Assembly: GCF_004010195.1 (NCBI RefSeq)
Contig: NC_057718.1
Coordinates: forward strand, 76,057,843-76,121,842
Source of the DNA: Chiloscyllium plagiosum
Taxonomy: Eukaryota
DNA length: 64,000 nucleotides
Direction: 5' to 3'
Shown here: positions 13,099 to 59,929 of the stretch, piece by piece
Numbering within the stretch: position 1 is the stretch's first letter
How the letters are laid out: each line of letters starts with the position of its first letter
Made by a program: the position numbers and the translations under genes
Notes under the pieces: generated by a model
What the model saw: only the letters and a program-made list of their open reading frames with translations
Database searches by the model: none
What the model was told of the DNA's origin: nothing

Positions 13099-13297
13099 GA
13101 GCTGAAAATGTGTGTTGCTGGAACAGCGCAGCAGGTCAGGCAGCATCCAGGGAACAGGAGAATCGACATTCAGGAAGAAGGGCTTATGCCCGAAACGTCG
13201 ATTCTCCTGTTCCCTGGATGCTGCCTGACCTGCTGCGCTGCTCCAGCAACACATTTTCAGCTCTGATCTCCAGCATCTGCAGTCCTCACTTTCTCCC
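13099..13297 (+). mobile_element. Short palindromic Penelope-derived element
   Basis: Inverted arms (tgttgctggaacagcgcagcaggtcaggcagcatcc / ggatgctgcctgacctgctgcgctgctccagcaaca); 15-bp TSD tggagaagcagaaac at 13084-13098 and 13298-13312. Confidence 0.85.
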
Positions 13298-13863
13298 TGG
13301 AGAAGCAGAAACCATAGCTTCAGCAATTGAAACACTTCACCATACCAACATGGAGAAAGTATATTGCACATTCACAAACCAATTTCACCCCTCAGTTAGA
13401 TATAGCAGAAACCTACCAAATAGACTAGGTGTAACATCTGTCTGTGCCAGACATTTTATTATATTACAAAATCCTCCATAGGAAAATTATAAATTAAAGT
13501 ATGGCAGCAAGCCACATGAAAAGGCAGACTACTTTCAAATTACAAAAAGTGTGGTCAGAGGAACATTTTAAGGGGACTTTAAAGAAAGAGAGGCAAACAG
13601 ATACACACAAAGTGAATTCCAGAGCTTGAGGCCTAGTCAATCCAAAGGCACTTGCACCAAAGTGCAGCAATTATAACTGGGGGTGCACAAGAGAGTAGGA
13701 TTACAGCATCTGAGCATTGTGGGACACGAGGAAACAAGGATAAGAATTTTAAAGTCAAAAACATTATTTGACGAGGAGCTAATGTGAATTATTGAGCACA
13801 TGGGTAACAGAGGAATGGGAGTTGTTGCAAGGCTTCAGAGCTTTGATGGCCTCAAGTTTATAG

Positions 13864-15622
13864 GGGTGCTGGGAAAAGCACAGCTGGTCAGGCAGCTTCC
13901 AAGGAACAGGAGAGTCGACATTTTGAGCATGAGGTCTTCATCAGGAATGTGGGGGGCCCAAGGGGGCTGAGTGAGTTGGGGAGGTGACTAGGAATAAAAT
14001 AGGTGGAGGAAGGTAGGGGCTGAAGGTGATAGGACAGAGTGGAGGATGGAGCAGATAGGTGAGAAGGAAGATGGACAGGGAGAACAGTTCAAGACTGCAA
14101 TTCCAAGTTGCAGGGTTGGATCTGGGATAAGGTGGGGGTGGGGGAGAAAAGATGAGAAAACTAGTGAAATCAGCGTTAATGCCGTGTGGTTGGAGGGTCA
14201 CAAGGCAAAGATGAGGTGTTGTTCCTCCAGGTGGCTAGGATTTGGCGGTGGTGGCAGCCCAGGACTTGCATGTCCTTGGCAGAGTGGGAGGGGGAGTTGA
14301 AGTGATTGGCCCAAGGGCAGTGGGTTTGTTTAATGTGCGTTCCCCAGAGATATTCTCTGGGATGTTGATTAACTGTCAATTTCACAATCCTGACCTCAAG
14401 TTCAGATGGACCATCTCGGACACCTCCCTCCCCTTCCTGGACCTCTCATCTCCATTTCCGGCAACCAACTTAACACAGACATCTACTTCAAACTCAGACT
14501 CCCACAGCTACCTGGACTACACCTCCTCCCACTTTGCCTCCTGTAAAAACGCTATCCCTTACTCCCAATTTCTCCGCCTCCACCACATCTGCTCCCAGGA
14601 GGACCATTCCACTTCGAAACATCCCAGATGACCTCCTACTTCAAGGATCATAATTTCCTCTCCCACATGGTCAACAATGCCCTGCAGCGCATCTCCTCCA
14701 CTTTCCACACCCCCACCCCTCCAACTGCACCAATGACAGAACCCCCCAGTCCTCATCTTCCACCCCACCAATCTCCATATACATTATATCATCCTCCACC
14801 TACAGTCAGACCCCACCACCAGAGGTATATTTCCCTCCCCACCCTCATCAGCATTCCAGAGACCATTCCTTCCGTGACTCCTTCATTAGGTCCATGCCCC
14901 ACCCTACCCCTCCAACCCAGACTCCAATCCAAGCATCTTGCCTTGTCACAGCAAGAGGTATAAAACCTGCACCCACACCACACTCCTTACCTCCATCCAA
15001 GACCCCAAAAGGATCCTACCACATCCAGCAGAGAATTTTCTGCACATCCAAACACCTCATCTGTGTCCTTGATGTGGTCTCCTCTACATTGGGGAAACAG
15101 GACGCCAACTTGCAGAACATTTCAAAGAACATCTCTAGGACACCCACACTAATTAACCCCACCACCCAATGGCTTAACACTAACTCCCCCTCCCAATCCA
15201 CCAAGGACATACAAGTCCTGGGCTAGCTTGACTGCCAAATGATGGCAACGCCTGGAGGAACACCACCTTATCTTCCACCTTAGAACCCTCCAACCACATG
15301 GAATTCATGAAACTAGTGAAATCATCATCTCCCCTTCCCCCCCACCTTATCCCAGATTCAACCCTCCAACTCTGCAATGCCCTCTTGAACTGAACTATCT
15401 GTCGCCTTGTGACCCTCCAACTACATGGCATCAATGCTGATTTCACTAGTTTTCTCATCTCCCCCCACCTTATCCCAGATCCAACCCTGCAACTTGGAAT
15501 GGCACTCTTGAACTGTTCTCCCTGTCCATCTTCCTTCTCACCTATCCGCTCCTAGCTGGCTGTGCTTATCCAGCGCCACACTTTCTGACTCTGATCTCCA
15601 GCATCTGCAGTCCACACTTTCT
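13864..15622 (+). mobile_element. Penelope-like retroelement, 5'-truncated, with upstream inverted terminal repeat
   Basis: RT C-terminal motifs (LKFRWTISDTSLPFLDL; YLDYTSSH..CKNAIPYSQFLRL..ICS), then a decayed GIY-YIG; about 13865-14350 is an inverted copy of the 3' end; 12-bp TSD tcaagtttatag at 13852-13863 and 15623-15634. Confidence 0.88.
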
Positions 15623-16859: not shown

Positions 16860-18350
16860 AATAAGGCCAGGGCAAATGCCATCTCTTTGGCCCTAACAAT
16901 CACCCCAGGCTCCTACTTATAGACTATAGTTTCACCTTCAACATCATAATTCTAAACAAACTCATCTCCAAACTCCAAAGATCTCAGGTCCCTGGCTCTG
17001 TAACTGGATCCTTGATTTCCTGACCCATAGACCACAATCAGTAAGAATGTGACAACACATCTTCCACGGTAATGGTCAGCACTGGCGTCCTGCATGGCTG
17101 CACACACAGCCCCTTACTGTACTCCTTGTACACTTACAACTGTATGGCCAAATTCCGCTCAAACTCCATTTACAAATTTGCTGACAACACCACCATTGCA
17201 GATCGGATCTCAAACAATAACAAGACAGTGTACAGGCAAGGGACTGAGTGCTTAGCAGCATGGTGTAAAGACAACAAGCTCTCTAACAACATCAGCAAAA
17301 TGAAGGAGTTGGCTATCGACTTCAGGAAGTAGAGTGGAGGGCATGCCCCGTCTGCACCAAGGGTGCTGAGGTGGAGATGTTCGACAGCATCAAGTTGCTG
17401 GGAGTGATGATCACCAACAAGCTGTCTTAGTTCATCCACGTCAAAGCGATGGTTCAAGAAAACTCAACAATACCTCTACATCCTGAGGATAAAGAAATTC
17501 AGCTTGTCCACAAATATCCTTAACAATTTTCATAGATGCCCTAGAAAAAGCATCCTGTCTGGATGCATTAATGTGAAATGGCAATAGCTGTGCCCAAGCC
17601 GTGCAACAAACTACCGAGATTTGGGGCGGCACTGTGGCTCAGTTGCATCATAGCACCAGGGACTTAGGTTCAATTCCACTCTCCAATGACTGTCTGTGTG
17701 GAACTTGCACATTTGTTGTGTCTGCGTGGGTTTCTCTGGGTGCTCCAGTTTCCTCCCATAGTCCAAAGACTTGCAGGTTAGGTGCATTGGCCATTCCATA
17801 ATGCCCTCAGTGTCCAGGGATATGCAGGCTAGGTGGATCGGCAATGGGAAATGCAGGGTTACAGGATGAGTCCGGGGGTGGGTCTGGGCGGAATGCTCTG
17901 AGGGTTGATGTGGACTTGATGGGCCGAATGGCATGTTTCCACACTGTAGGGATTCTGTACTACGATTCTGATTGGTGAACACAGCCCAGTTCCATTACAC
18001 AAACTATCCTTCTATTCAGTTACTCCATCTATTCTTCCCACTGCCTCAGGAAAGCAGCCAACCTAAAGAAGACCCCTCCCATCCCAGTTATACTCTCTTC
18101 ATCATCTTCTGTCGCACAGAAGATATAAACGTTTGAATCCACATACGAACAGATTAAAGAACAGCTTCTTTCCTGCTCTTTTCAGATTTTTGAACAGACC
18201 TCTCAAAAAAAGTTAATGCTGATTTTTTGTCCCTGCCCCTTCGCTGCAGCTGTAACACTGTATTCTACATTCTCTATATACGATCTGCTTTCATAGCACA
18301 TAAAACACTTTTCACTGTATCACAATACACGTGACACTAAATCAAATCAA
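16860..18350 (+). mobile_element. Rex1/Babar LINE RT and 3' end, interrupted by a SINE
   Basis: ORF 17072-17332 STGVLHGC..SPLLYSLYT..IYKFADNTT..WCKDNKL...KMKEL.IDFRK (RT, FADD-type); tail aatcaaatcaaa at about 18340. Confidence 0.85.
17622..17968 (+). mobile_element. HE1-type V-SINE
   Basis: ggggcggcac head, V-domain, gggccgaatggc..gtttccacactgtagggattct tail. Confidence 0.85.
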
Positions 18351-27055: not shown

Positions 27056-27218
27056 GGATCTTTCCTTGTCAAATTTCTTTTTTTGAAAAAAAAGCGTTGA
27101 GGTTTCTCAGCTCAACTACCCTCCTAGCCAGTGCATTCCAGATGCACGACCCTTCTTACTGAAAAAGATTTTCCTGATATCCCCTCTAAACCTCCTGCCT
27201 TTCACTTGAAAATTATGA

Positions 27219-27414
27219 GCTTAAAAATGTGTTGCTGGAAAAGCGCAGCAGGTCAGGCAGCAAAGGAACAGGTGAATCGACATTTCGGGCATAAGCCCTT
27301 CTTCAGGAATCATACGATTCTCCTGTTCCTTTGATGCTGCCTGACCTGCTGCGCTTTTCCAGCAACACAATTTTAAGCTCTGATCTCCAGCATCTGCAGT
27401 CCTCACTTTCTCCT
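27219..27414 (+). mobile_element. Short palindromic Penelope-derived element
   Basis: Inverted arms; hammerhead-like motif on the minus strand (ctgaagaagggcttatgcccgaaatgtc); 15-bp TSD acttgaaaattatga at 27204-27218 and 27415-27429. Confidence 0.85.
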
Positions 27415-40433: not shown

Positions 40434-40617
40434 GATGGCCAGTTATACAACAGAGACCACATTTGGCGTACCACATATAAAACTGATCACCTTATTTAAA
40501 AGGAGGGATGTAAATGAATTTAAAAATCATTTCAGAGAAGGTTTACCAGATTAATATTAGGAATGATTGTGTTGTCTTGTGTGGAAAGGCTGGATTACTT
40601 GTTTAGTTGAGTAAGAG

Positions 40618-40798
40618 CTTAAAAATGTGTTGCTGGAAAAGCGCAGGTCAGGCAGCAAAGGAGAAGGAGAATCGACGTTTCGCACATATGCCCAAAACGT
40701 CGATTCTCCTTCTCCTTTGATGCTGCCTGAACTGCTGCGCTTTTCCAGCAACACATTTTTAAGCTCTGATCTCCAGCATCTGCAGTCCTCACTTTCTC
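40618..40798 (+). mobile_element. Short palindromic Penelope-derived element inside an old CR1
   Basis: Inverted arms; 15-bp TSD ttagttgagtaagag at 40603-40617 and 40799-40813. Confidence 0.85.
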
Positions 40799-43100: not shown

Positions 43101-46094
43101 ACGACAGTGTTGTGTGTCTTATATCTCAAATCAGCTCTTTACAATAAATTTGCAACCACTGGCTATTTCGTGTGTGGAAACAAAATTTTGTCACTGCAAC
43201 CACAGTTAAATATAGAGAGAGGATAATTTTGGTGCTAGTACCCTCCCAAATTAAAGCAAAAATAAAAATTTTGGCCATGCATCCATGTTACACATGAAAT
43301 CAGTACGAAGGTCTGAGTGATGGACTCAGAACCACTACCTTCATTATTCTTGAATCACATCAGTAATTACAGAGTGAAGCTGCATTACAACAGAATCAGT
43401 GTTAAATACATTCATCTTTACTCTAGGTACAGTGTGAATAGCAGTATTTTAGCTGTGGTGCAATTGCTGGCATCCTTACGTCCATGTTTAAAAAATTGTA
43501 CACTCAAGTCCCATTTTACTAGTCAACAGAAAGCAGCTTAAAATGTCAATAAAACTGCAGTATATAGACCAGACTGACATTCATAGCACAGGAAATGCTA
43601 TCTTTCAGTTGAGACATTAAGCCTAACATGAACCTTCCCTTCCATACTAATGTAAACAAATCTATGCCAATAATCAAAAGAGCTGGAGAATTCTCCCCAG
43701 TGACATTGCACTTATCCCTTATGTAAAATAAGATTGTGTGTACAAATTGGATAGATTATAATGTTAATGCAAAAAAAAAGTGCAAGTCTTTCTTCTAAGT
43801 GTACCCTGAACTGTGCACCAATTAACTCAAAATAATTAATCCAACTGAGGAGAGATTTTTACTACTTGAAGAGGTAAAAATGCAAGTTTTAGCCATGTGT
43901 TGAGACTGATTTTCACCATCCTCAGGTCATCCAACCTGATGCGAACAAATGGAAGCAGAAAACTACATACAGAAAATAAGATATAATGTTATAGTGGTCT
44001 TTATTCATTAGTTTAGATGTAACTCAAATATAACTGTGTCAATGTTATGTTACAAAGTTCACAATACAACACAAGCTTTGAACAACGAAATGTCACTAGA
44101 GTGTTACAGTTAAAATTGGTAAGATCCAAAATTTACACTTCTTCCATTTCCTTCATCCTGATTGGTACTGCTCAGACTCAAAAACACTGCATACCAATTT
44201 TTAAAAGAGTATCTGTGAAACTTCACAAATCAATTTAAAATGCATTCTAATCACTTAATAGTAAGCAGGGAACCTTCTCTGTATGAATTATGGAAAACAA
44301 TGAACCATCAATCTCCACATCAGCAGCAACCAGACTGCAGCACCTATTAAGTAACATAATCAATTCTATTATTTTCCATACTATTAGAGCTTTTGTGCAG
44401 GCTGAACATATTCAAACAAACATTCGACTATTTTATTAACACAAATTGAATTGTACTTGTGACACCTTTCTACAATGCTAAACTTCCTAAACATTTTCTA
44501 ATCATGCACAAATGGCATTTACAGTCATTCCATGATGTCATTCTTTTCATTTTCCCACTCCAATCAAATTTATTAATAAATCATCCATTATTTTAATGCA
44601 TCAGTGCATGCCTCAATGATACTGTGGATAGCTTATAAAGAACCTTTGTGAGAGAGTCTTCCAGTTCAAACAAAGCATGCATAAATGAACAGTTGATGTT
44701 ATCATCTTTCAGCTTTACATCTTGGACAGTACATCTTTCTACAGATTCCAGCTTACATCTTAGTCTGTGTAAAGGTGTGCACCTGACACCTTACACCTGC
44801 TCAGAGACACGTTCACTAAATTAAAGAAAAATATTAAGGAATTTTAAAAAGTATTCATTGATTGTGCTGTATGTAGAATACAATTCAGTTGATTCAACTA
44901 GAGCCAATGAGCTACTTTCAGAGAATATGCACCTTAATTGAACAGAATGTCATAATTGTGTCCATATTCTAGACAATGTTTCAATATTTGCACAATTTAC
45001 ACAAAATAATATACTGCTCTGGAAAAGTAACAGCAACTTATCATACTACTGTATTTAATCTAAGTCAAACTAAAAACTGTTCACAACTAGAGATATGTGA
45101 AAGTTGATCAATTTGTTCCTGAGGCCAGGTTATTTAATGTGGATCTAAGATTACTGTAAAAAAGTGACAAATTATTTATTTACAAAGATGGACAAATCTA
45201 ATCACAACATTTGCTGCTTCAAACAAAGTGTATTTAAAAAACACTATCAAGAAAAGGATTCAGAACAAGTTAAATTTCCTCAGCCCAGAATACAAAACTC
45301 CACCTTTTATTGCAGCGGTGTGTGGTATCTGTTCTTCATAAACTTTCATCGATTAAGGGTAACCCAAAACTAAAACAAGCTAGATACTAGAACCAGGACC
45401 CTCACCACTGTAAACTATGAATGGTTGACAACGTTAGAATTAAACATTTGGAGAATCCCTCAAAGCGTGAATTAAAATAGCACTTCATCAGGAATTAGTA
45501 ATGGTCGGAAGACATTGCCCAATCGCGCAATTATCTGATCAACCACATGAGAGAAAAAAAACTAAAAAAAAGTTTGTTGAGTCACACTCCGGACAATACA
45601 AACTGATAGGCGATATGCATAAAGAGCAGCAATATCACTAGAAATATTGAACTTGATGAAACAATATTCTTCTCGTCGCTGTTTTGACAAAGAGGCGGCG
45701 TATTTATTGTAAATGGGAAGGGAGAAAAAACAACATTTTGGTCCATTAATGTACTTGCCATCCAATACATACGCAACCACTTGGAAAGCTTCCCAGGGAC
45801 TGTGGGAACAGATTTAAACAGGGACAGTTCAGGGGAATATGAAAACAACCAATTTAAAAGGCGAAACCATTCGAACTATCGCAACGTTAACGCCCAATCG
45901 AAATCGAGGGCGATTTAAAGAATGAAGACGTTCAGGAATAGAGGCAGCTGCTAGTCATTCAACACAACCAGGAAACAACCAGACAGGATTCCCACCCTAC
46001 TACCATTTTCCGGGGAATTCTAGTTTCCTGCACGAACCAGGATACAGTCTGAAAGGGCTGCGGGAAAAGGTCACAACAAAACAACTCAGCTCTA

Positions 46095-46363
46095 CAGCTC
46101 TCTCTGGGACTCAGGAGGAACCCGAATCCACAAGCAGCTTGGATTCGACATAACTCGCTCCTTCCTTCAGGTTATAGTCCATCAGGTTTAATTGGAAGCA
46201 CATTAGCTTTCGGAGCGAGTCTCCTTCATCAGGTGATTGTCGCTCCGAAAGCTAATGTGCTTCCAATTAAACCTGATGGACTATAACCTGAAGGAAGGAG
46301 CGAGTTATGTCGAATCCAAGCTGCTTGTGGATTCGGGTTCCTCCTGAGTCCCAGAGAGAGCTG
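46095..46363. repeat. Perfect inverted repeat, 124-bp arms, 21-nt spacer
   Basis: 46095-46218 is the exact reverse complement of 46240-46363 (checked base by base). Confidence 0.97.
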
Positions 46364-46424
46364 GTGCTGTGTGATTTTTAACTGTGTACACCCCAGTCCA
46401 ACACTGGCATCTCCAAATCATGAC
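46171..46424 (+). mobile_element. Penelope-type inverted terminal-repeat insert (second family)
   Basis: Hammerhead-bearing palindromic core and 3' end gtgtgatttttaactgtgtacaccccagtccaacactggcatctccaaatc; imperfect 13-bp TSD ctcctt(c/t)cttcag at 46158-46170 and 46425-46437. Confidence 0.7.
46204..46232 (-). ncRNA. Minimal hammerhead ribozyme core (Penelope-associated type)
   Basis: Minus strand reads CUGAUGA-A-GGAG-ACUCG-CUCC-GAAA-GCUA: both conserved boxes, a 4-bp stem II, palindromic AGCU helix III and a UA cleavage site; helix I is weak. Confidence 0.6.
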
Positions 46425-46897
46425 CTCCTTTCTTCAGCAGCGAGAATGGGCCAGGAACACCCAGATAAAGAACTTTCCATCCGCCCGCCTTCAGTCAGGG
46501 AAAGGACTCTCTCCAAATCCCCTTTCTCCACAACCCCCCGCCCGGACAAGGGAAGGTCTCCTCTCCTAAACCAATTGCAGCTGAGCGGTGGATCCGGTCG
46601 TGGCGACCTTACCCAACACACCAGGCCCGGGGCACCGCAGCCCTTCACCCCCACCTCTACCCTTCACCCACTCCTGAAAACTTACCCACAGGCAATGCAC
46701 AGTTTCCCCACTCGCTGTCAAAGTACCCGGCCCTCTTACTCACTCATTACACCCCAGTCACCAATTTGACTCTTACCATTAACCGGTGCCGGAGCAACGA
46801 GTCTGTTGGACCCGGAACTCCTCCTGCTGCTCCCGGTATGAATGCCGGTGCTCCTCCCACTCTTCTCACTGCCTTTCAAGATCCTGCTTCCAGTCCT

Positions 46898-49800
46898 ATG
46901 CTCCTCCCCCCTGCTCCCGGTGTGGATCCCGTGCTCCTCCCCCCTGCTCCCGGTGTGGATCCCGTGCTCCTCCCCCCTGCTCCCGGTGTGGATCCCGTGC
47001 TCCTCCCCCCTGCTCCCGGTGTGGATCCCGTGCTCCTCCCCCCTGCTCCCGGTGTGGATCCCGTGCTCCTCCCCCCTGCTCCCGGTGTGGATCCCGTGCT
47101 CCTCCCCCCTGCTCCCGGTGTGGATCCCGTGCTCCTCCCCCCTGCTCCCGGTGTGGATCCCGTGCTCCTCCCCCCCCTGCTCCCGGTGTGGATCCCGTGC
47201 TCCTCCCCCCCCTGCTCCCGGTGTGGATCCCGTGCTCCTCCCCCCCCTGCTCCCGGTGTGGATCCCGTGCTCCTCCCCCCCCTGCTCCCGGTGTGGATCC
47301 CGTGCTCCTCCCCCCCCTGCTCCCGGTGTGGATCCCGTGCTCCTCCCCCCCCTGCTCCCGGTGTGGATCCCGTGCTCCTCCCCCCCCTGCTCCCGGTGTG
47401 GATCCCGTGCTCCTCCCCCCCCTGCTCCCGGTGTGGATCCCGTGCTCCTCCCCCCTGCTCCCGGTGTGGATCCCGTGCTCCTCCCCCCTGCTCCCGGTGT
47501 GGATCCCGTGCTCCTCCCCCCTGCTCCCGGTGTGGATCCCGTGCTCCTCCCCCCTGCTCCCGGTGTGGATCCCGTGCTCCTCCCCCCTGCTCCCGGTGTG
47601 GATCCCGTGCTCCTCCCCCCTGCTCCCGGTGTGGATCCCGTGCTCCTCCCCCCTGCTCCCGGTGTGGATCCCGTGCTCCTCCCCCCTGCTCCCGGTGTGG
47701 ATCCCGTGCTCCTCCCCCCTGCTCCCGGTGTGGATCCCGTGCTCCTCCCCCCTGCTCCCGGTGTGGATCCCGTGCTCCTCCCCCCTGCTCCCGGTGTGGA
47801 TCCCGTGCTCCTCCCCCCTGCTCCCGGTGTGGATCCCGTGCTCCTCCCCCCTGCTCCCGGTGTGGATCCCGTGCTCCTCCCCCCTGCTCCCGGTGTGGAT
47901 CCCGTGCTCCTCCCCCCTGCTCCCGGTGTGGATCCCGTGCTCCTCCCCCCTGCTCCCGGTGTGGATCCCGTGCTCCTCCCCCCTGCTCCCGGTGTGGATC
48001 CCGTGCTCCTCCCCCCTGCTCCCGGTGTGGATCCCGTGCTCCTCCCCCCTGCTCCCGGTGTGGATCCCGTGCTCCTCCCCCCTGCTCCCGGTGTGGATCC
48101 CGTGCTCCTCCCCCCTGCTCCCGGTGTGGATCCCGTGCTCCTCCCCCCTGCTCCCGGTGTGGATCCCGTGCTCCTCCCCCCTGCTCCCGGTGTGGATCCC
48201 GTGCTCCTCCCCCCTGCTCCCGGTGTGGATCCCGTGCTCCTCCCCCCTGCTCCCGGTGTGGATCCCGTGCTCCTCCCCCCTGCTCCCGGTGTGGATCCCG
48301 TGCTCCTCCCCCCTGCTCCCGGTGTGGATCCCGTGCTCCTCCCCCCTGCTCCCGGTGTGGATCCCGTGCTCCTCCCCCCTGCTCCCGGTGTGGATCCCGT
48401 GCTCCTCCCCCCTGCTCCCGGTGTGGATCCCGTGCTCCTCCCCCCTGCTCCCGGTGTGGATCCCGTGCTCCTCCCCCCTGCTCCCGGTGTGGATCCCGTG
48501 CTCCTCCCCCCTGCTCCCGGTGTGGATCCCGTGCTCCTCCCCCCTGCTCCCGGTGTGGATCCCGTGCTCCTCCCCCCTGCTCCCGGTGTGGATCCCGTGC
48601 TCCTCCCCCCTGCTCCCGGTGTGGATCCCGTGCTCCTCCCCCCTGCTCCCGGTGTGGATCCCGTGCTCCTCCCCCCTGCTCCCGGTGTGGATCCCGTGCT
48701 CCTCCCCCCTGCTCCCGGTGTGGATCCCGTGCTCCTCCCCCCTGCTCCCGGTGTGGATCCCGTGCTCCTCCCCCCTGCTCCCGGTGTGGATCCCGTGCTC
48801 CTCCCCCCTGCTCCCGGTGTGGATCCCGTGCTCCTCCCCCCTGCTCCCGGTGTGGATCCCGTGCTCCTCCCCCCTGCTCCCGGTGTGGATCCCGTGCTCC
48901 TCCCCCCTGCTCCCGGTGTGGATCCCGTGCTCCTCCCCCCTGCTCCCGGTGTGGATCCCGTGCTCCTCCCCCCTGCTCCCGGTGTGGATCCCGTGCTCCT
49001 CCCCCCTGCTCCCGGTGTGGATCCCGTGCTCCTCCCCCCTGCTCCCGGTGTGGATCCCGTGCTCCTCCCCCCTGCTCCCGGTGTGGATCCCGTGCTCCTC
49101 CCCCCTGCTCCCGGTGTGGATCCCGTGCTCCTCCCCCCTGCTCCCGGTGTGGATCCCGTGCTCCTCCCCCCTGCTCCCGGTGTGGATCCCGTGCTCCTCC
49201 CCCCTGCTCCCGGTGTGGATCCCGTGCTCCTCCCCCCTGCTCCCGGTGTGGATCCCGTGCTCCTCCCCCCTGCTCCCGGTGTGGATCCCGTGCTCCTCCC
49301 CCCTGCTCCCGGTGTGGATCCCGTGCTCCTCCCCCCTGCTCCCGGTGTGGATCCCGTGCTCCTCCCCCCTGCTCCCGGTGTGGATCCCGTGCTCCTCCCC
49401 CCTGCTCCCGGTGTGGATCCCGTGCTCCTCCCCCCTGCTCCCGGTGTGGATCCCGTGCTCCTCCCCCCTGCTCCCGGTGTGGATCCCGTGCTCCTCCCCC
49501 CTGCTCCCGGTGTGGATCCCGTGCTCCTCCCCCCTGCTCCCGGTGTGGATCCCGTGCTCCTCCCCCCTGCTCCCGGTGTGGATCCCGTGCTCCTCCCCCC
49601 TGCTCCCGGTGTGGATCCCGTGCTCCTCCCCCCTGCTCCCGGTGTGGATCCCGTGCTCCTCCCCCCTGCTCCCGGTGTGGATCCCGTGCTCCTCCCCCCT
49701 GCTCCCGGTGTGGATCCCGTGCTCCTCCCCCCTGCTCCCGGTGTGGATCCCGTGCTCCTCCCCCCTGCTCCCGGTGTGGATCCCGTGCTCCTCCCCCCTG

Positions 49801-50840
49801 CTCCCGGTGTGGATCCCGTGCTCCTCCCCCCTGCTCCCGGTGTGGATCCCGTGCTCCTCCCCCCTGCTCCCGGTGTGGATCCCGTGCTCCTCCCCCCTGC
49901 TCCCGGTGTGGATCCCGTGCTCCTCCCCCCTGCTCCCGGTGTGGATCCCGTGCTCCTCCCCCCTGCTCCCGGTGTGGATCCCGTGCTCCTCCCCCCTGCT
50001 CCCGGTGTGGATCCCGTGCTCCTCCCCCCTGCTCCCGGTGTGGATCCCGTGCTCCTCCCCCCTGCTCCCGGTGTGGATCCCGTGCTCCTCCCCCCTGCTC
50101 CCGGTGTGGATCCCGTGCTCCTCCCCCCTGCTCCCGGTGTGGATCCCGTGCTCCTCCCCCCTGCTCCCGGTGTGGATCCCGTGCTCCTCCCCCCTGCTCC
50201 CGGTGTGGATCCCGTGCTCCTCCCCCCTGCTCCCGGTGTGGATCCCGTGCTCCTCCCCCCTGCTCCCGGTGTGGATCCCGTGCTCCTCCCCCCTGCTCCC
50301 GGTGTGGATCCCGTGCTCCTCCCCCCTGCTCCCGGTGTGGATCCCGTGCTCCTCCCCCCTGCTCCCGGTGTGGATCCCGTGCTCCTCCCCCCTGCTCCCG
50401 GTGTGGATCCCGTGCTCCTCCCCCCTGCTCCCGGTGTGGATCCCGTGCTCCTCCCCCCTGCTCCCGGTGTGGATCCCGTGCTCCTCCCCCCTGCTCCCGG
50501 TGTGGATCCCGTGCTCCTCCCCCCTGCTCCCGGTGTGGATCCCGTGCTCCTCCCCCCTGCTCCCGGTGTGGATCCCGTGCTCCTCCCCCCTGCTCCCGGT
50601 GTGGATCCCGTGCTCCTCCCCCCTGCTCCCGGTGTGGATCCCGTGCTCCTCCCCCCTGCTCCCGGTGTGGATCCCGTGCTCCTCCCCCCTGCTCCCGGTG
50701 TGGATCCCGTGCTCCTCCCCCCTGCTCCCGGTGTGGATCCCGTGCTCCTCCCCCCTGCTCCCGGTGTGGATCCCGTGCTCCTCCCCCCTGCTCCCGGTGT
50801 GGATCCCGTGCTCCTCCCCCCTGCTCCCGGTGTGGATCCC
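46898..50840. repeat. 33-bp minisatellite, 119 units (8x33 + 8x35 + 103x33)
   Basis: Unit gtgctcctcccccctgctcccggtgtggatccc; the eight units at 47162-47441 have C8 instead of C6; one BamHI site per unit. Confidence 0.97.
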
Positions 50841-51039
50841 GACTCAGCGAGTTGTAAGTTCATGGAATGTCCTGCCAGTAGCAGTGGTGGACTCTCCCTC
50901 TTTATGGGCATTTAAACGGGCATTGGATAGGCATATGGAGGATAGTGGGCTAGTGTAGGTTAGGTGGGCTTGGATCGGCGCAACATCGAGGGCCAAAGGG
51001 CCTGTACTGTGCTGTATTTTTCTATGTTCTATGTTCTAT
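50841..51039 (+). mobile_element. Young-looking CR1 LINE 3' end
   Basis: TQRVVSSWNVLP..VVDSPSL.AFKRALDRHM and a (ttctatg)n tail. Confidence 0.9.
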
Positions 51040-52190
51040 CTTATTCTTTTAAACTCCAATGAGTACGAAGTTCAACGTACTCAACTTATCATAAAAAAAG
51101 TCCCTCCAGAATTAACCTAGTGAACCTTCTCTGGACCATCTCCAATTCTAAGTGAAAGTGAGGACTGCAGATGTGGAGATTAGAGTCCAAGAGTGTGGTG
51201 CTGGAAAAGCACAGCAGGTCAGGCATCATCTGAGGAGCAGGAGAATCGATGTTTCAGGCAAAAGCCCCTCATCAGGAATGAAAAATCCCTTCATCTATTC
51301 CTGAGGAAGTGCTTTTGACCAAAATGTTGATTCTCCTGCTCCTCAGATGCTGTCTGACCTGCTGTGCTTTACCTGCACCACACTATCATCTCCAATTCTA
51401 GTATATATTTCTTTCAATAAGAGGACCAAAACTATTCACAAATTTGCAGATGTGGCCTGACATGTGTCTTGTATAGTTTAAGAAAGAGTTGTCAATTTTT
51501 AGAATAAAGTAAAGAACTGCAGATGCTGGAAATCTGAAACAAAACCAAAAAGTGCTAGAGAACTTTGACAAAGAGTCAGTGGATTCAACATTAACTCGCT
51601 CTACAGATGCTGCCAGACCTGTTGAGTTTCTTCAGAACTTCATGTTTTTGCTCCCTATTTTTATATGCCATTCCCGTCAAAATGAAGCCAACAGTTAATT
51701 TGTGTTCCCTATTACCAACGAAATATGTAAGCTAGCTTTCTTTGATTCATGCACAAGGACTACAAACCCCTCTGATCTGCAGCATTATACAGTTTTCCCT
51801 ATTAAATAATATTCAGCTCTGTTATTTCTTCTGCAAAAATTGATAATCTCATATTTTCCCACATTGCATTACATTTTCCAAATTTTGGCTCACTCACTTA
51901 AACTGTAAACTCATCCTCACCAGCTTGTTCTTCTCACTTATTTTATGTCAGCTGCAAATAGTACACTCACATCCTTCATCCAAGTCATAAACATGTTTTG
52001 TAAATAACTGTGGCCCTAGCACTAATCCCTTTGGCACTCCATTAGTCATAGATTGCCATCCTGAAAATGTCCCCTTTATCCCAACTCTCTGTCTTCTATT
52101 AGTTAACCAGTTCACTGTTAGTACTAACACACTACTCCCAACACAATGTTATCTTATTAAGTAGCCTTATGTGTGGTACCTTATTGAATG
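51040..52190 (-). mobile_element. Old CR1 LINE RT fragment with nested inserts
   Basis: ORF 51948-52130 NWLTNRRQRVGIKG.FSGWQSMTNGVPKGLVLGPQLF. Confidence 0.82.
51151..51386 (-). mobile_element. Short palindromic Penelope-derived element
   Basis: Hammerhead-like motifs on both strands (rc ctgatgaggggcttttgcctgaaacatc at 51248-51275); 14-bp TSD catctccaattcta at 51137-51150 and 51387-51400. Confidence 0.85.
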
Positions 52191-53857: not shown

Positions 53858-54061
53858 GGAGAAAGTGAGGACTGCAGATGCTGGGGATCAGAGCTGAAAC
53901 TGTGTTGCTGGAAAAGCACAGCAGGTCAGGCAGCATCCAAGGAGCAGGAGAATCAACGTTTCCGGATATTTCCTGAAGAAGGGCTCATGCCCGAAACATC
54001 AATTCTCCTGCTCCTTGGATGCTGCCTGACCTGCTGAGCTTTTCCAGCAACACATTTTCAG
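53858..54061 (-). mobile_element. Short palindromic Penelope-derived element
   Basis: Motif ctgaagaagggctcatgcccgaaacatc at 53973-54000; 14-bp TSD ctagtgtcagtata at 53844-53857 and 54062-54075. Confidence 0.87.
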
Positions 54062-55834
54062 CTAGTGTCAGTATATCCTTTCTCAAGTAAGGAGACCAAA
54101 GATACATGTAATACTCCAGGTGTGGCCTCACCAGCACCCTATACAGCTGCAACATAAGCTTTTAAATTCAATCCCTTTAGCAATGAAGGACAAAATCGCA
54201 TTTGCTTTCTTAATTACCTGTTCCACCTGCAGACCAACCTTCTGTGATTCATACACAAGAACACCAAGGTCCCTCTGCACAACAACATGCTGCAATGTTT
54301 TACCTTTCAAATAATAGTCATTTTTACTGTTATTCCTATCAAAATGGATGACTCCGCATTTATTAATGTTGTATTCCATCTGCAAGACCTTTTGACCACT
54401 CACTTCAACTATTTATGTCCCTCTGCAAAGTTTCATAGTCCTCTGCACACTTTGCTCTACCACTCCTCTTAGTAACACCATGCATCTTTATCTAATGCAG
54501 CAACCTTTTGTGCAGCACCTTATCGAATGCCTTTAGGAAATCTAGATGCACCACATCTACTGGGTCCCCATTGTTCACCGTGCTCTTAATGTCTTCATAG
54601 AATTCCAGTAGATTAGTTAAGCATGGCCTGCCTTTCATGAACCCATGCTGCATCTGCCCAATGGGACAATTTCTACCTAGATGTCTTGCTATTTCTTCCT
54701 TGATAATAGATTCAAACATTTTCCCCACAGCAGAAGTTAAGAAAACTGACCTATAATTCTTTCTTCTTTCTTTTGTTGTATTTTTACTACAGTGAATGAA
54801 TAAAGTCGGTTTTGCTTCAAGACTGGTAGTTTGACCAATCGAATTGCATCTGGAACACAACATCTGGCACTTGAAATAAGAAAACTTTAGGGGCTAGGCT
54901 ATTTTCTTAATATATTTGGAGGGAGTTTGGTCTGGTCCATAACACTGGGAATGATGCACCATGCACTGCGTCTGACAACAATTCATTAGTACATGTAGCC
55001 AAACCTGAACATCCTCCAGAATTGTGCACATAAATGCAAGTAACATTTGCAGCATACTGGTGCCAGGCAATGGCCATTTCAATGAAATAAATCTAATTCA
55101 TCTCCACATGATTTATAATTTTAATAGTACAGTGTTCCCTCTCATCAATATTCTGCAAGTATCACTGACCTAAACTCAACTGGACCAATGGGTAAATGCT
55201 GTGGCTGCAAGAACTACAGTATTCAGAGGTTGGGCATTATCCAACAAGAGGTTCATCTCCTGACTCTTCAAAACAGTTCTACTACCTGCAAAGAAAAAGT
55301 AAAGAATGAGGTGGAATTGACAAGATGATGACAGTGCAACAATACTCAGGAAACACAATATAGGGCAAAGCATTATCTTTGGCTGGTACATCCATTATTT
55401 AAATATTAACTCAATATACACACACACAGCCCCCCACACACCCATCTCTCTGGGCACCATGGCTCCAATATTATTTACAAGATACACAGCAGCAACTCAC
55501 CATGGCACCTTCCACAGTATCTGCCAATCTCATGAGATTTACCACCTGGAAAGAAAATGCAAGTGCATTTCCAATCATCCTGATTCAGAAACATATTGTT
55601 ATTTCTTCAGTATTGTCTGGAAGAATTCTTGGAACTGCAACACTTACAGCACTGTGTGAGTACCTTCACAACATGGACTGCAACAATTCAAAAAGGCAGC
55701 TTGCCATTTCCATCTCAAAAATAACTAGGAATGAGCAACATATATTGGGTTTTGTCAACAATGCCCACACCCATGAATGTCAATTGGAGTGATGTAATCC
55801 ATCCATAGTATTACCACTACAACTGGTATATTAC

Positions 55835-57649: not shown

Positions 57650-58660
57650 AGATGGGAGGGATACTAAATTAATATTTCATGTCAGTTTTCACTGTGGAGA
57701 AAGAAATGAAGTCCAGAGAATTCAGAGAAATAAACTTTGATGTTTTACAAACAGTTTTGTAACCGTTTCTACCCTACTATAGTTAGAATACTAAATGGAC
57801 TCACTAACTCTTAACATTTGCCTGTACCTGTGTTTTTGTTTTTGCCGCTGTTTACCTATTACTTACTTATCTAGTGATCTGCCTGTATTGCTCGCAAGAC
57901 AAAGCTTTTCACTGTGCCTCGGTACACTTGACAATAAAATCCAATTCAATTCAATTCAATTCCATTCACATTACAGATCAGGAAGTTTGGCGGTCTTAGA
58001 GAATATAAAGTTGGGTAAATCTCCAGGACTTGGTCTAATGTATCTCAGAATGATGTGGAAAATAAGGGAGGAAATTACAAGATCCCATACAGAAATATTA
58101 GCATCATCTATAACTATGGTTGAGGTGCCTGATGACTGGACGGTGTGTATTGTTGTACCTTTCTTTGTTAGACTTCTGAGTCTGACTTCGGTTGTGGGTA
58201 AGTTGTTGGAGGTGATTAGAAAAAATAGGATTCATGGGCATTTAGAGAGGCAAAAAATGATTAGGGATAGTCAACATGGTTTTGTGTGAGGAAAATCATG
58301 TCTCACAAAGTTGACTGAGGTTTTTGAGGAAGTTACCAAAAAGGTTGATGATGATAAACAGTCATTGTTTATTTGGATTTTAGTAGAGCCTTTGATGAAG
58401 TTCTGCAAGGTAGATTAATTAATAAAGTTAGGTCACATGGGATTCAGTGTGAGCTTGCCAATTGGTTACATAAATGGCTTAACGACTGGAGACAGAGAGC
58501 AACGTTGGAGGGTTGCTTTTTGGACTGGAGGCCTGTGATCAGCAGTATTCCAAAGGAATTGGTTCTAGGTTCTCTTTTGTTTGTCATTTATATAAATAAT
58601 GTTGATGAGAATATAGAAGGCACGATTAGTGAATTTCCAGATGACACCAAAATTGATCGT
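57650..58660 (+). mobile_element. CR1 LINE RT fragment
   Basis: KSPG, LSLTSVVGKLLE, SQHGF, DFSRAFD.V, WLNDWRQR, LLFVIYIN, FPDDTK. Confidence 0.88.
57757..57962 (+). mobile_element. Rex1/Babar-type LINE 3' end nested in CR1
   Basis: cttttcactgtgcctcggtacacttgacaataaa plus a (caatt)n tail, similar to the 18300-18350 terminus. Confidence 0.7.
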
Positions 58661-59929
58661 CATGATTTGGATATTTTTCTCTCATAGGGCCATTAATCTT
58701 CTGAATTCTGTTCTCCAAAAAACAATGGTGCTAGGTCATTGAATTTATTCAAAGCTCTATTACATAGGTTTTTGATCAGCAAGAAAATCAATGGTTATGA
58801 AGGGGGAAGTGGGCAACAGGAGACCATGATCAAACTAAACATTACATTATTGAATGCTGGGATGGTCTCGAAGGGTCAAATGACCTTTAGTCCATAATTC
58901 TCTGTTCCAATGAACAGGTTGTCATAGAGTGGTAAGTGATATGCAGCATAGATGTTTTCAATGATTGTACATTAATTATATACAGATAATGGATATTAAC
59001 TGGAAATTCACCTGTATTCCTATAAATAAGAACAGTCCGCTCACTCATCTTGGCCTTGTCAACAAGATTTAAACAAGTGGCCAGCCTTCATCTAAACATG
59101 GACAAAAGAGTTGGCCTCAAGAGGTGAGGTAAAAGTGATTGTCTTTGATATAAATTAAGGCAGAATTTGACTGAACGTGGCATCTAACAGCCTTCACAAA
59201 ACTAAAGTTAATGGAAATCGAGGGTAAAACTCTGCACTGGTCAGGAGGATGGTTTAGGTTGTAGGTCAATCATCTCAGTGTTGGGGCCTGGGTTGTAGGA
59301 GTTCCTTTGATTATGCCCAACCATCTTCAGTTGCTTCAGCAATGACCTCCGGCTGTAATGAGGTAAAAAGCTGGGTCCACACTCCCCACCAAAACTCTCC
59401 TCCACATCTGGCATATTTCCCTGTGGCTGTTGGAGGTGTAACACCTGCGCCCACACCTCCCCCCTCACCTCCTTCCAAGGCCCTAAAGAATAATTCCAAG
59501 ATCACAGAGATTCACCTGTATTTCTCTAACCTGAGTTATTGCATCTGTTGTTCCTGATATGGTCTCCTTTAAGTGGGAGAGACTGAGCATAAACTTGGGG
59601 ACCAGTTCAGGGAACACCTTTGGTCCAGATGCTCAAAACAACCTCACCTTCCGGTTGCCAGCCATTTCAACTCCTCCTCACACAACCCCGATGACATGTC
59701 CATCCTGGACCTCCCCCGCTGTCAAAGTAAGGCCATATTCAAACTGGAGGAAGAACACCTCATCTTCTACCTCAGGAACTTGCAACCATATGGCCTTGAC
59801 ATAAAATTCACCAGCTTCCAAATTTCCCCACACCCACTTCACTCTAGGTCCAGCCCTCCTTCTCCACTCCACCTGCTTTACCTAACCCTACCTGACCATC
59901 TTCCTTCCCACCTATCCTCTCCATGCTTC

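Follow-up and report, generated by a model that had tools for sequence, protein, structure and literature searches.

The 64,000-nucleotide stretch of Chiloscyllium plagiosum DNA analysed here (the window) carries a perfect inverted repeat with arms of 124 bp, the second of which consists of 51 bp of an inserted element followed by 73 bp of host DNA copied from the left flank. Hammerhead motif and architecture support the insertion as a fragment of the end-repeat of a Penelope-like element (PLE), and the locus is most likely an instance of a class of fold-back events already described for human L1 insertions. A single integration event, in which a twin-primed insertion was followed by snap-back synthesis 73 bp into the flank and by rejoining at the trinucleotide CTG, has in our judgement an even chance of being the correct explanation. 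The hairpin is real in the assembly and probably real in the genome; it is most likely a mutational scar, with no sign yet of function.

Geometry and Stability of the Hairpin

The arms, at 46095-46218 and 46240-46363, are exact reverse complements at 124 of 124 positions and enclose a loop of 21 nt. A preceding reading of the window, made from its letters alone (the sequence-only reading), had claimed a perfect 124-bp hairpin in which the left flank recurs in inverted form with CTG at both junctions, and the letters are exactly as claimed: 46095-46167 (73 bp) is the reverse complement of 46291-46363, and CTG borders the 73-bp insert at both ends (46288-46290 and 46361-46363). The runner-up among closely spaced perfect inverted repeats in the 64-kb window measures 44 bp. 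Folded as RNA, positions 46085-46445 reach -278.8 kcal/mol, a stability equalled by 0 of 100 shuffled sequences; with a z-score of -28.7, the inverted repeat is far beyond chance. The features of the locus are collected in Table 1.

Table 1. Features of the hairpin locus and of the control insertions, in window coordinates.
Feature	Position	Strand	Remarks
Left flank (host DNA, 73 bp) serving as template for the inverted copy	46095..46167	+	Single copy in the empty site of the related species
Inverted 72-bp piece, putative Penelope-type pLTR end (left arm and 21-nt loop)	46168..46239	-	Paralogue depth; loose-end consensus before 46168
Candidate minimal type-I hammerhead core	46201..46235	-	CTGATGA, bulged A, 4-bp helix II, GAAA, palindromic AGCT
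Perfect inverted copy of 46095-46218	46240..46363	-	Element arm, 51 bp (46240-46290), and host flank, 73 bp (46291-46363)
Element 3' part in sense orientation, with tail, 61 bp	46364..46424	+	Family sequence resumes where the inverted piece begins, with a 3-nt CTG overlap
Flank stretch beyond the copied part, imperfectly like the reverse complement of the element 3' part	46078..46097	+	Extended micro-homeology; ends in CAG
Left copy of the apparent 13-bp target-site duplication (TSD)	46158..46170	+	CCTT low-complexity; last 3 letters also begin the element; doubtful as TSD
Apparent TSD, right copy, or beginning of the right host flank	46425..46437	+	Species B contig resumes at 46426
CpG-rich host stretch holding the insertion	45400..46899	.	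Several CCAAT boxes; no gene identified
Control palindromes, second repeat family	13099-13298, 27217-27414, 40614-40798, 51151-51386, 53858-54061		Perfect 14-15-bp TSDs; one-sided tail of ~35 nt

The Inserted Element

Leaving the copied arm aside, the insertion is a 133-bp stub made of the 72-bp inverted piece and the 61-bp sense piece. Positions 45000-46800 were compared with the contigs of four public runs; assembled contigs were used throughout, and they were taken as proof of presence, never of absence. This comparison rests on the best 32 of 49,402 contig pieces, 15 of 165 joints and 24 of 629 loose ends. The element is a very abundant repeat in the genome, since the summed contig depth lies near 1e6 over its pieces and at about 16 in the flanks. 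Among the matches listed, the 3' ends of paralogues gather at 46420-46424. The copy in the window departs from the paralogue majority at at least 4 of 133 element positions (46182/46276, 46203/46255, 46367 and 46384). A blastn search of the 64-kb window found no other copies of the family, and a 20-nt element motif gave 0 matches in metagenome_contigs and 0 in viral_contigs.

PMC4209133 describes a minimal hammerhead core in the pLTRs of PLEs. All four of its features are present on the minus strand at 46201-46235, namely the core boxes, the unpaired base 9/10.1, the G10.1-C11.1 pair and a palindromic 15.2-16.2, with the palindromic AGCT standing where helix III would be. Helix II comprises 4 bp here, in contrast to the 7-8 bp given for Schistosoma families in the same paper. 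The variant at 46203 breaks the first pair of helix I; at this position, 94% of the depth in one conspecific run (X1) carries the other letter. Rfam at gathering scores returned no match, and hence no hammerhead, in the whole window. Ranked by E-value, 13 Rfam matches lie around the site, all below the gathering score and none of them a hammerhead. The best of these were miRNA hairpin models, which were rejected as generic, being far below their gathering scores and reflecting hairpin shape only.

An inverted truncated piece lies head to head with a direct piece that bears a one-sided tail, as in PLEs. The earlier assignment of the insertion to a Penelope terminus is thus upheld by a Penelope-type end-repeat with the minimal hammerhead core, by the head-to-head layout, by the one-sided tail and by the high copy number.

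Host Origin of the Copied Flank

A related species (species B), which differs from the window by 49 substitutions over 1191 aligned bp (4.1%), provides the only ancestral-type state seen at the locus. A single 349-bp contig of this species covers 46019-46166 and then continues directly at 46426; it is an empty site, and it carries the 73 bp once. Within the window, 21-mers of the 73 bp occur nowhere outside the arms. Among the matches listed, paralogue contigs whose match begins at 46361-46364 extend at their loose 5' ends into further family sequence, and the family sequence is therefore continuous at the point that is interrupted here. The empty site, together with paralogues uninterrupted at that point, rules out that the 73 bp belong to the element consensus; the capture of host DNA by an element terminus, as proposed by the sequence-only reading, is confirmed in this respect. 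Both outer junctions of the insertion are present in X1, where contigs end at 46197 and begin again at 46399; a second conspecific run (X5) also has the right junction, and the two runs are samples from two studies. The empty site of species B may also be a secondary deletion or an ancestral polymorphism, in which case the insertion would be old and the copy later.

Twin-Priming Layout and Junctions

When the 124-bp copy is removed, the inverted 72 bp (46168-46239) and the sense 61 bp (46364-46424) prove to be adjacent on the family sequence, which passes from the point mirrored at 46168 straight into 46364 with a 3-nt overlap and no gap. Adjacent breakpoints are said to be the signature of the twin-priming model, reportedly put forward by Ostertag and Kazazian in 2001. 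Because a twin-priming layout remains without the 124-bp copy, no prior palindrome is needed. The earlier idea that a pre-existing palindrome had been extended and homogenised accordingly finds no support, as one copy event explains the whole 124-bp right arm. The inverted piece begins about 25 nt short of the usual start of the paralogues (loose ends before 46168 in X1 and X5, among the matches listed), and the 21-nt loop is its continuation. Later trimming of a typical full-length left arm would need two changes and was rejected as having no support.

At the fold-back junction, paralogue joints at 46240-46241 (15 of 165 joints) suggest a microhomology of about 1-2 bp. At the return junction, CTG is accompanied by a looser match of 46078-46097 to the 3' part of the element. 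Of 500 flank end points, 2-10 have homeology as good as that of this return point (itself counted), and of the nearest 150, 1-6 do, depending on the scoring and on the masking of 46367; this would lend mild support to a return at this point. With CTG at both ends of the 73-bp insert, the proposal that a template switch or fold-back with microhomology produced the copy agrees well. At 46367, the letter that departs from the paralogue majority equals the opposite flank base within 46078-46097, the homeologous stretch. Such a letter is what one would expect of heteroduplex repair where the strand returned; the match concerns a single site and could be due to chance.

Apparent Target-Site Duplication

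A single position out of 13 distinguishes the 13-mer at 46158-46170 from that at 46425-46437, and the inverted copy has the left variant; an automated TSD script overlooked the 13-mer at this locus. To this extent the sequence-only reading was accurate, as regards the letters, but the identity of the 13-mers as a TSD is doubtful: the empty site of species B is 8 bp longer than one 13-mer and contains both versions, left and right, in tandem in a repeat of CCTT. On the species B allele the flanks overlap by 2 bp, which is the true overlap only if that allele is ancestral. Three readings may apply: the flanks overlap by 2 bp and the TSD is not genuine; the TSD is 13 bp long and the repeat slipped in one of the lineages; or species B lost an older insertion. 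The mismatch had also been used to date the copy relative to the perfect arms. This clock is weak, for a single random mismatch among 13 + 124 positions falls in the 13 with p = 0.095, and the overlap may be 2 bp only.

Control Palindromes and Age of the Arms

The controls were five short palindromes in the window that stem from insertions of a second repeat family. They were drawn from 8 control regions, of which 13867 and 60248 (no palindrome located) and 42927 (no TSD located) were left out. Inverted flank 12-mers number 0 in the five controls and 62 here, and a second arm with host DNA is found in 0 of 5. The two arms of a control differ at 24 of 343 positions within copies, versus 358 of 2543 between copies. 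Departures common to both arms occur in all five (1-5 per copy), so the argument that shared arm variants prove homogenisation was discarded: ordinary palindromes share them too. At least one arm-specific difference is present in each of the five controls, against 0 of 124 at the hairpin, and the arms here are therefore young or converted. A count of 0/124 mismatches corresponds to an age below about 1.2% per arm (95% bound), which would fit inside the split of about 4.1% from the related species.

The window also contains a larger inverted arrangement at 14048-15622 (14048-14206 versus 15404-15552, 89%; 14074-14366 versus 15116-15403). It ends in the tail of the second family and is possibly a longer inverted insertion.

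Conspecific Contigs at the Inner Junctions

The inner junctions, 46239/46240 and 46363/46364, appear in none of the best 32 of 49,402 contig pieces, those of the conspecific runs X1, X5 and X9 included. Contig 1 of X1 spans 45000-46197 and is unbroken at 46095, the arm boundary. In an unsimplified assembly graph, a second arm would make a branch at the arm boundary; the cleaning of contigs and graphs, in turn, tends to remove short links that occur once and lead into a repeat of very high copy number. The unbroken contig may thus reflect an individual that has the element and lacks the copy, a link lost in contig cleaning, or an artefact in the window. In X5 the contig stops at 46096 and leaves a hole at 46097-46167, and X9 leaves the unique part of the arm uncovered; such holes prove nothing.

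Allelic differences between the window and X1, X5 and X9 are located at 45144, 45166, 45243-45244, 45553 and 46649-46656, and the X1 allele has a 10-bp duplication at 46649. Since the window differs from both contigs at other sites, neither X1 nor X5 is shown to be its source.

Origin of the Second Arm

The geometry is observed, as are the empty site of species B, the descent of the 73 bp from host DNA and the adjacency of the element pieces; from them we infer an order of events, a timing and a set of enzymes for a single integration event. The nuclease of the element would cut the CpG-rich site, and the right end would prime cDNA synthesis from the 3' tail of the RNA, yielding 46424 to 46364. 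The left end would prime a second cDNA internally, where the first cDNA stops, and give the inverted 46168-46239 by twin priming. The 3' end of this second cDNA could then snap back on 1-2 bp of microhomology, leaving the 21-nt loop, whereupon a polymerase would copy back over the new arm and 73 nt further into the resected left flank. The new strand would anneal to the first cDNA at CTG, with the looser match beyond it helping, and fill-in would complete the product. The reverse direction, with the first cDNA invading the flank at 46095-46097, would be equivalent and lead to an identical product. Enzymatically, a candidate is snap-back synthesis of the kind that occurs in microhomology-mediated end joining.

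The empty site of species B fits an origin of the insertion and the copy in the same event, and an element allele without the copy may exist. The unbroken X1 contig, the inner junctions missing from the contig pieces compared, and a possible secondary deletion or ancestral polymorphism in species B speak against a single event. The at least 4 departures among 133 positions are also more than a young insertion needs, unless they come from the source copy, and the controls combine perfect 14-15-bp TSDs with imperfect arms, the reverse of this locus.

Those departures and the mismatch between the 13-mers would suit an older element, in which the second arm arose later by a template switch during replication, either at a 51-bp palindrome or at a non-palindromic twin-primed piece. 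A nascent strand would have folded back, copied the left arm and 73 bp of flank, and returned at CTG, in the manner of a four-point or quasi-palindrome event. We regard this course as possible, albeit somewhat doubtful. The contrast between 0/124 arm mismatches here and 24/343 in the five control palindromes is in keeping with it, as is the X1 contig unbroken across 46095, which would suit an allele lacking the copy. Short palindromic insertions occur frequently in the window, and PMC5453318 documents the mechanism in human-chimp comparisons. A later switch would, however, imply that the site was hit twice after the two lineages parted (about 2% per lineage), or that species B lost the element. 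If a palindrome was there before, its left arm must in addition have been unusually short, and the strand must have returned without losing or gaining a base, and the clock offered by the 13-mers counts for little, given p = 0.095 and the doubt about their being a TSD.

Improbable in our assessment is an assembly or library artefact, that is, a fold-back made in vitro at a real short insertion and kept in the consensus. The absence of the inner junction from X1, X5 and X9 among the best 32 of 49,402 contig pieces and the continuity of X1 contig 1 at the arm boundary would agree with it, as would a few further differences (45144, 45243-45244) between the window and contigs of X1 and X5. Against this stand the clean out-and-back structure, the exact resumption of the family sequence, the homeology at the return, and the outer junctions of the insertion, both found in X1 and the right-hand one in X5 as well. 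The assembly also spans a 3.9-kb VNTR, which would suggest long reads. Moreover, contigs prove presence only, and a link into a high-copy repeat is easily lost in graph cleaning.

Comparison with Known Systems

Among human somatic L1 insertions, PMC10191854 (Nam et al. 2023) reports fold-back inverted duplication of upstream target DNA in three cases, and one case in which it is combined with a twin-priming inversion, the extra synthesis amounting to 52-220 bp. The locus described here resembles its 'process B + C', in which an inverted internal piece abuts the 3' piece and an inverted duplication of upstream target is present; the 73 bp of host DNA (124 bp in all) lie within that range, with CTG at the return and about 1-2 bp at the fold. 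Unlike those insertions, it involves a PLE end-repeat with no poly-A, it is germline rather than somatic, with outer junctions common to several haplotypes, and its fold-back starts inside the inverted cDNA, a comparison with their combined case that follows the text description only. L1 inverted duplications primed on 2-bp hairpins are reported in 10.1101/2024.12.14.628481. These duplications, formed by self-annealing at break ends induced by L1, share with our locus a small hairpin, a priming homology of 1-2 bp, and genomic DNA at the reciprocal end that is copied and then ligated to the cDNA end. They differ in coming from cell lines and tumours and in keeping a TSD-like duplication, whereas the TSD is uncertain here.

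In PLEs, inverted truncated copies with a one-sided tail are standard, and how the inverted structures are made is stated to be unresolved (PMC8557442); self-priming has been proposed for PLE palindromes (PMC3846280). An ordinary insertion joins an inverted 5'-truncated copy to a direct copy with a 30-40-bp tail (PMC8557442, PMC3846280, PMC4209133, PMC11167929). Our locus is similar in its head-to-head layout, its tail on one side and its minimal hammerhead; it is unlike them in having a second arm with host DNA, an inverted piece about 25 nt short, and no clean 14-15-bp TSD. Purified PLE protein cuts and extends both strands and begins reverse transcription internally (PMC11167929), which makes two primed ends plausible.

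The local template switch of Loytynoja and Goldman (2017; PMC5453318) is comparable in that a nearby reverse-complement fragment is copied, the strand returns to its template, and no prior near-perfect repeat is assumed. It differs as a replication model with events of tens of bases, as opposed to retro-integration. No description of host-flank fold-back at PLE insertions was found among open-licence PMC and bioRxiv titles and abstract openings, though one may exist, and the retrozyme preprint 10.64898/2026.07.22.740005 adds nothing on PLE flank fold-back.

Genomic Context and Possible Function

The insertion lies in the only CpG-rich unique stretch of the window (45400-46900). The CpG observed/expected ratio is 0.45-1.08 in 200-bp windows over 45400-46999, versus 0.23 for the window minus the VNTR. 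CCAAT boxes are located at 45519, 45762, 45849 and 45894, and TTTAAA motifs occur at positions 45853 and 45914; the stretch is promoter-like, and a promoter here would be plausible. Of the promoter-proximal, CpG-rich site proposed by the sequence-only reading, the CpG richness stands, while no host gene was identified by Pfam in 117 + 95 frames. Window-wide, the 117 open reading frames of at least 75 aa (excluding a 1462-aa VNTR frame at 46469-50854 and frames wholly inside the VNTR) gave three RVT_1 and two weak sub-threshold matches and no host gene. Near the site, 95 short frames (94 of the 118 listed, known-repeat frames being dropped, plus 46469-46900) gave one weak sub-threshold match and no host exon. 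The RVT_1 matches mark fragments of decayed retroelements at 17045-17329, 54495-54893 and 58358-58684. The VNTR itself (46899-50841), 475 bp to the right of the insertion, extends over 3.9 kb and contains 119 copies of a 33-bp GC-rich unit with 99% matches; its reading frames stay open for 1300-1460 codons on both strands because of the 33-bp unit length, and its degenerate start at 46783-46900 suggests a local origin.

A run guessed to be RNA, which may be DNA, holds two short unspliced contigs to the left of the hairpin (45145-45296 and 45744-45981, depth 4-6). Retention of the hairpin as transcribed dsRNA, as a source of endo-siRNA or as a regulatory stem in a CpG-island transcript, would be compatible with either origin and might draw on these contigs, on the very stable fold (-278.8 kcal/mol, z = -28.7) and on the CpG-rich setting. 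We nevertheless consider it very unlikely, as the hairpin is absent from the related species and so has no conservation or covariation, no host gene was identified in the frames searched (reverse-transcriptase fragments alone reach the Pfam cut-off), and the Rfam miRNA matches fall far below gathering scores.

Significance

Since the second arm runs into host DNA, it was made at this locus on a DNA template and not on the RNA of the element. As a single locus, the hairpin is a scar of a class known from L1, and it would be biologically relevant only if it were transcribed and processed. A genome-wide count of flank-copy cases could test models of PLE integration. In a broader view, which we put forward as speculation and hold to be unlikely, the hairpin would be a frozen intermediate of PLE integration, and would show that the second arm of PLE palindromes can arise when twin priming on a single RNA is followed by snap-back DNA synthesis. 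Overshoot into the flank would then be a recurrent germline route, in PLE-rich genomes, to long perfect hairpins containing host DNA, some of which, lying in CpG-island transcripts, might give rise to siRNAs directed at the host locus as well as at the PLE family.
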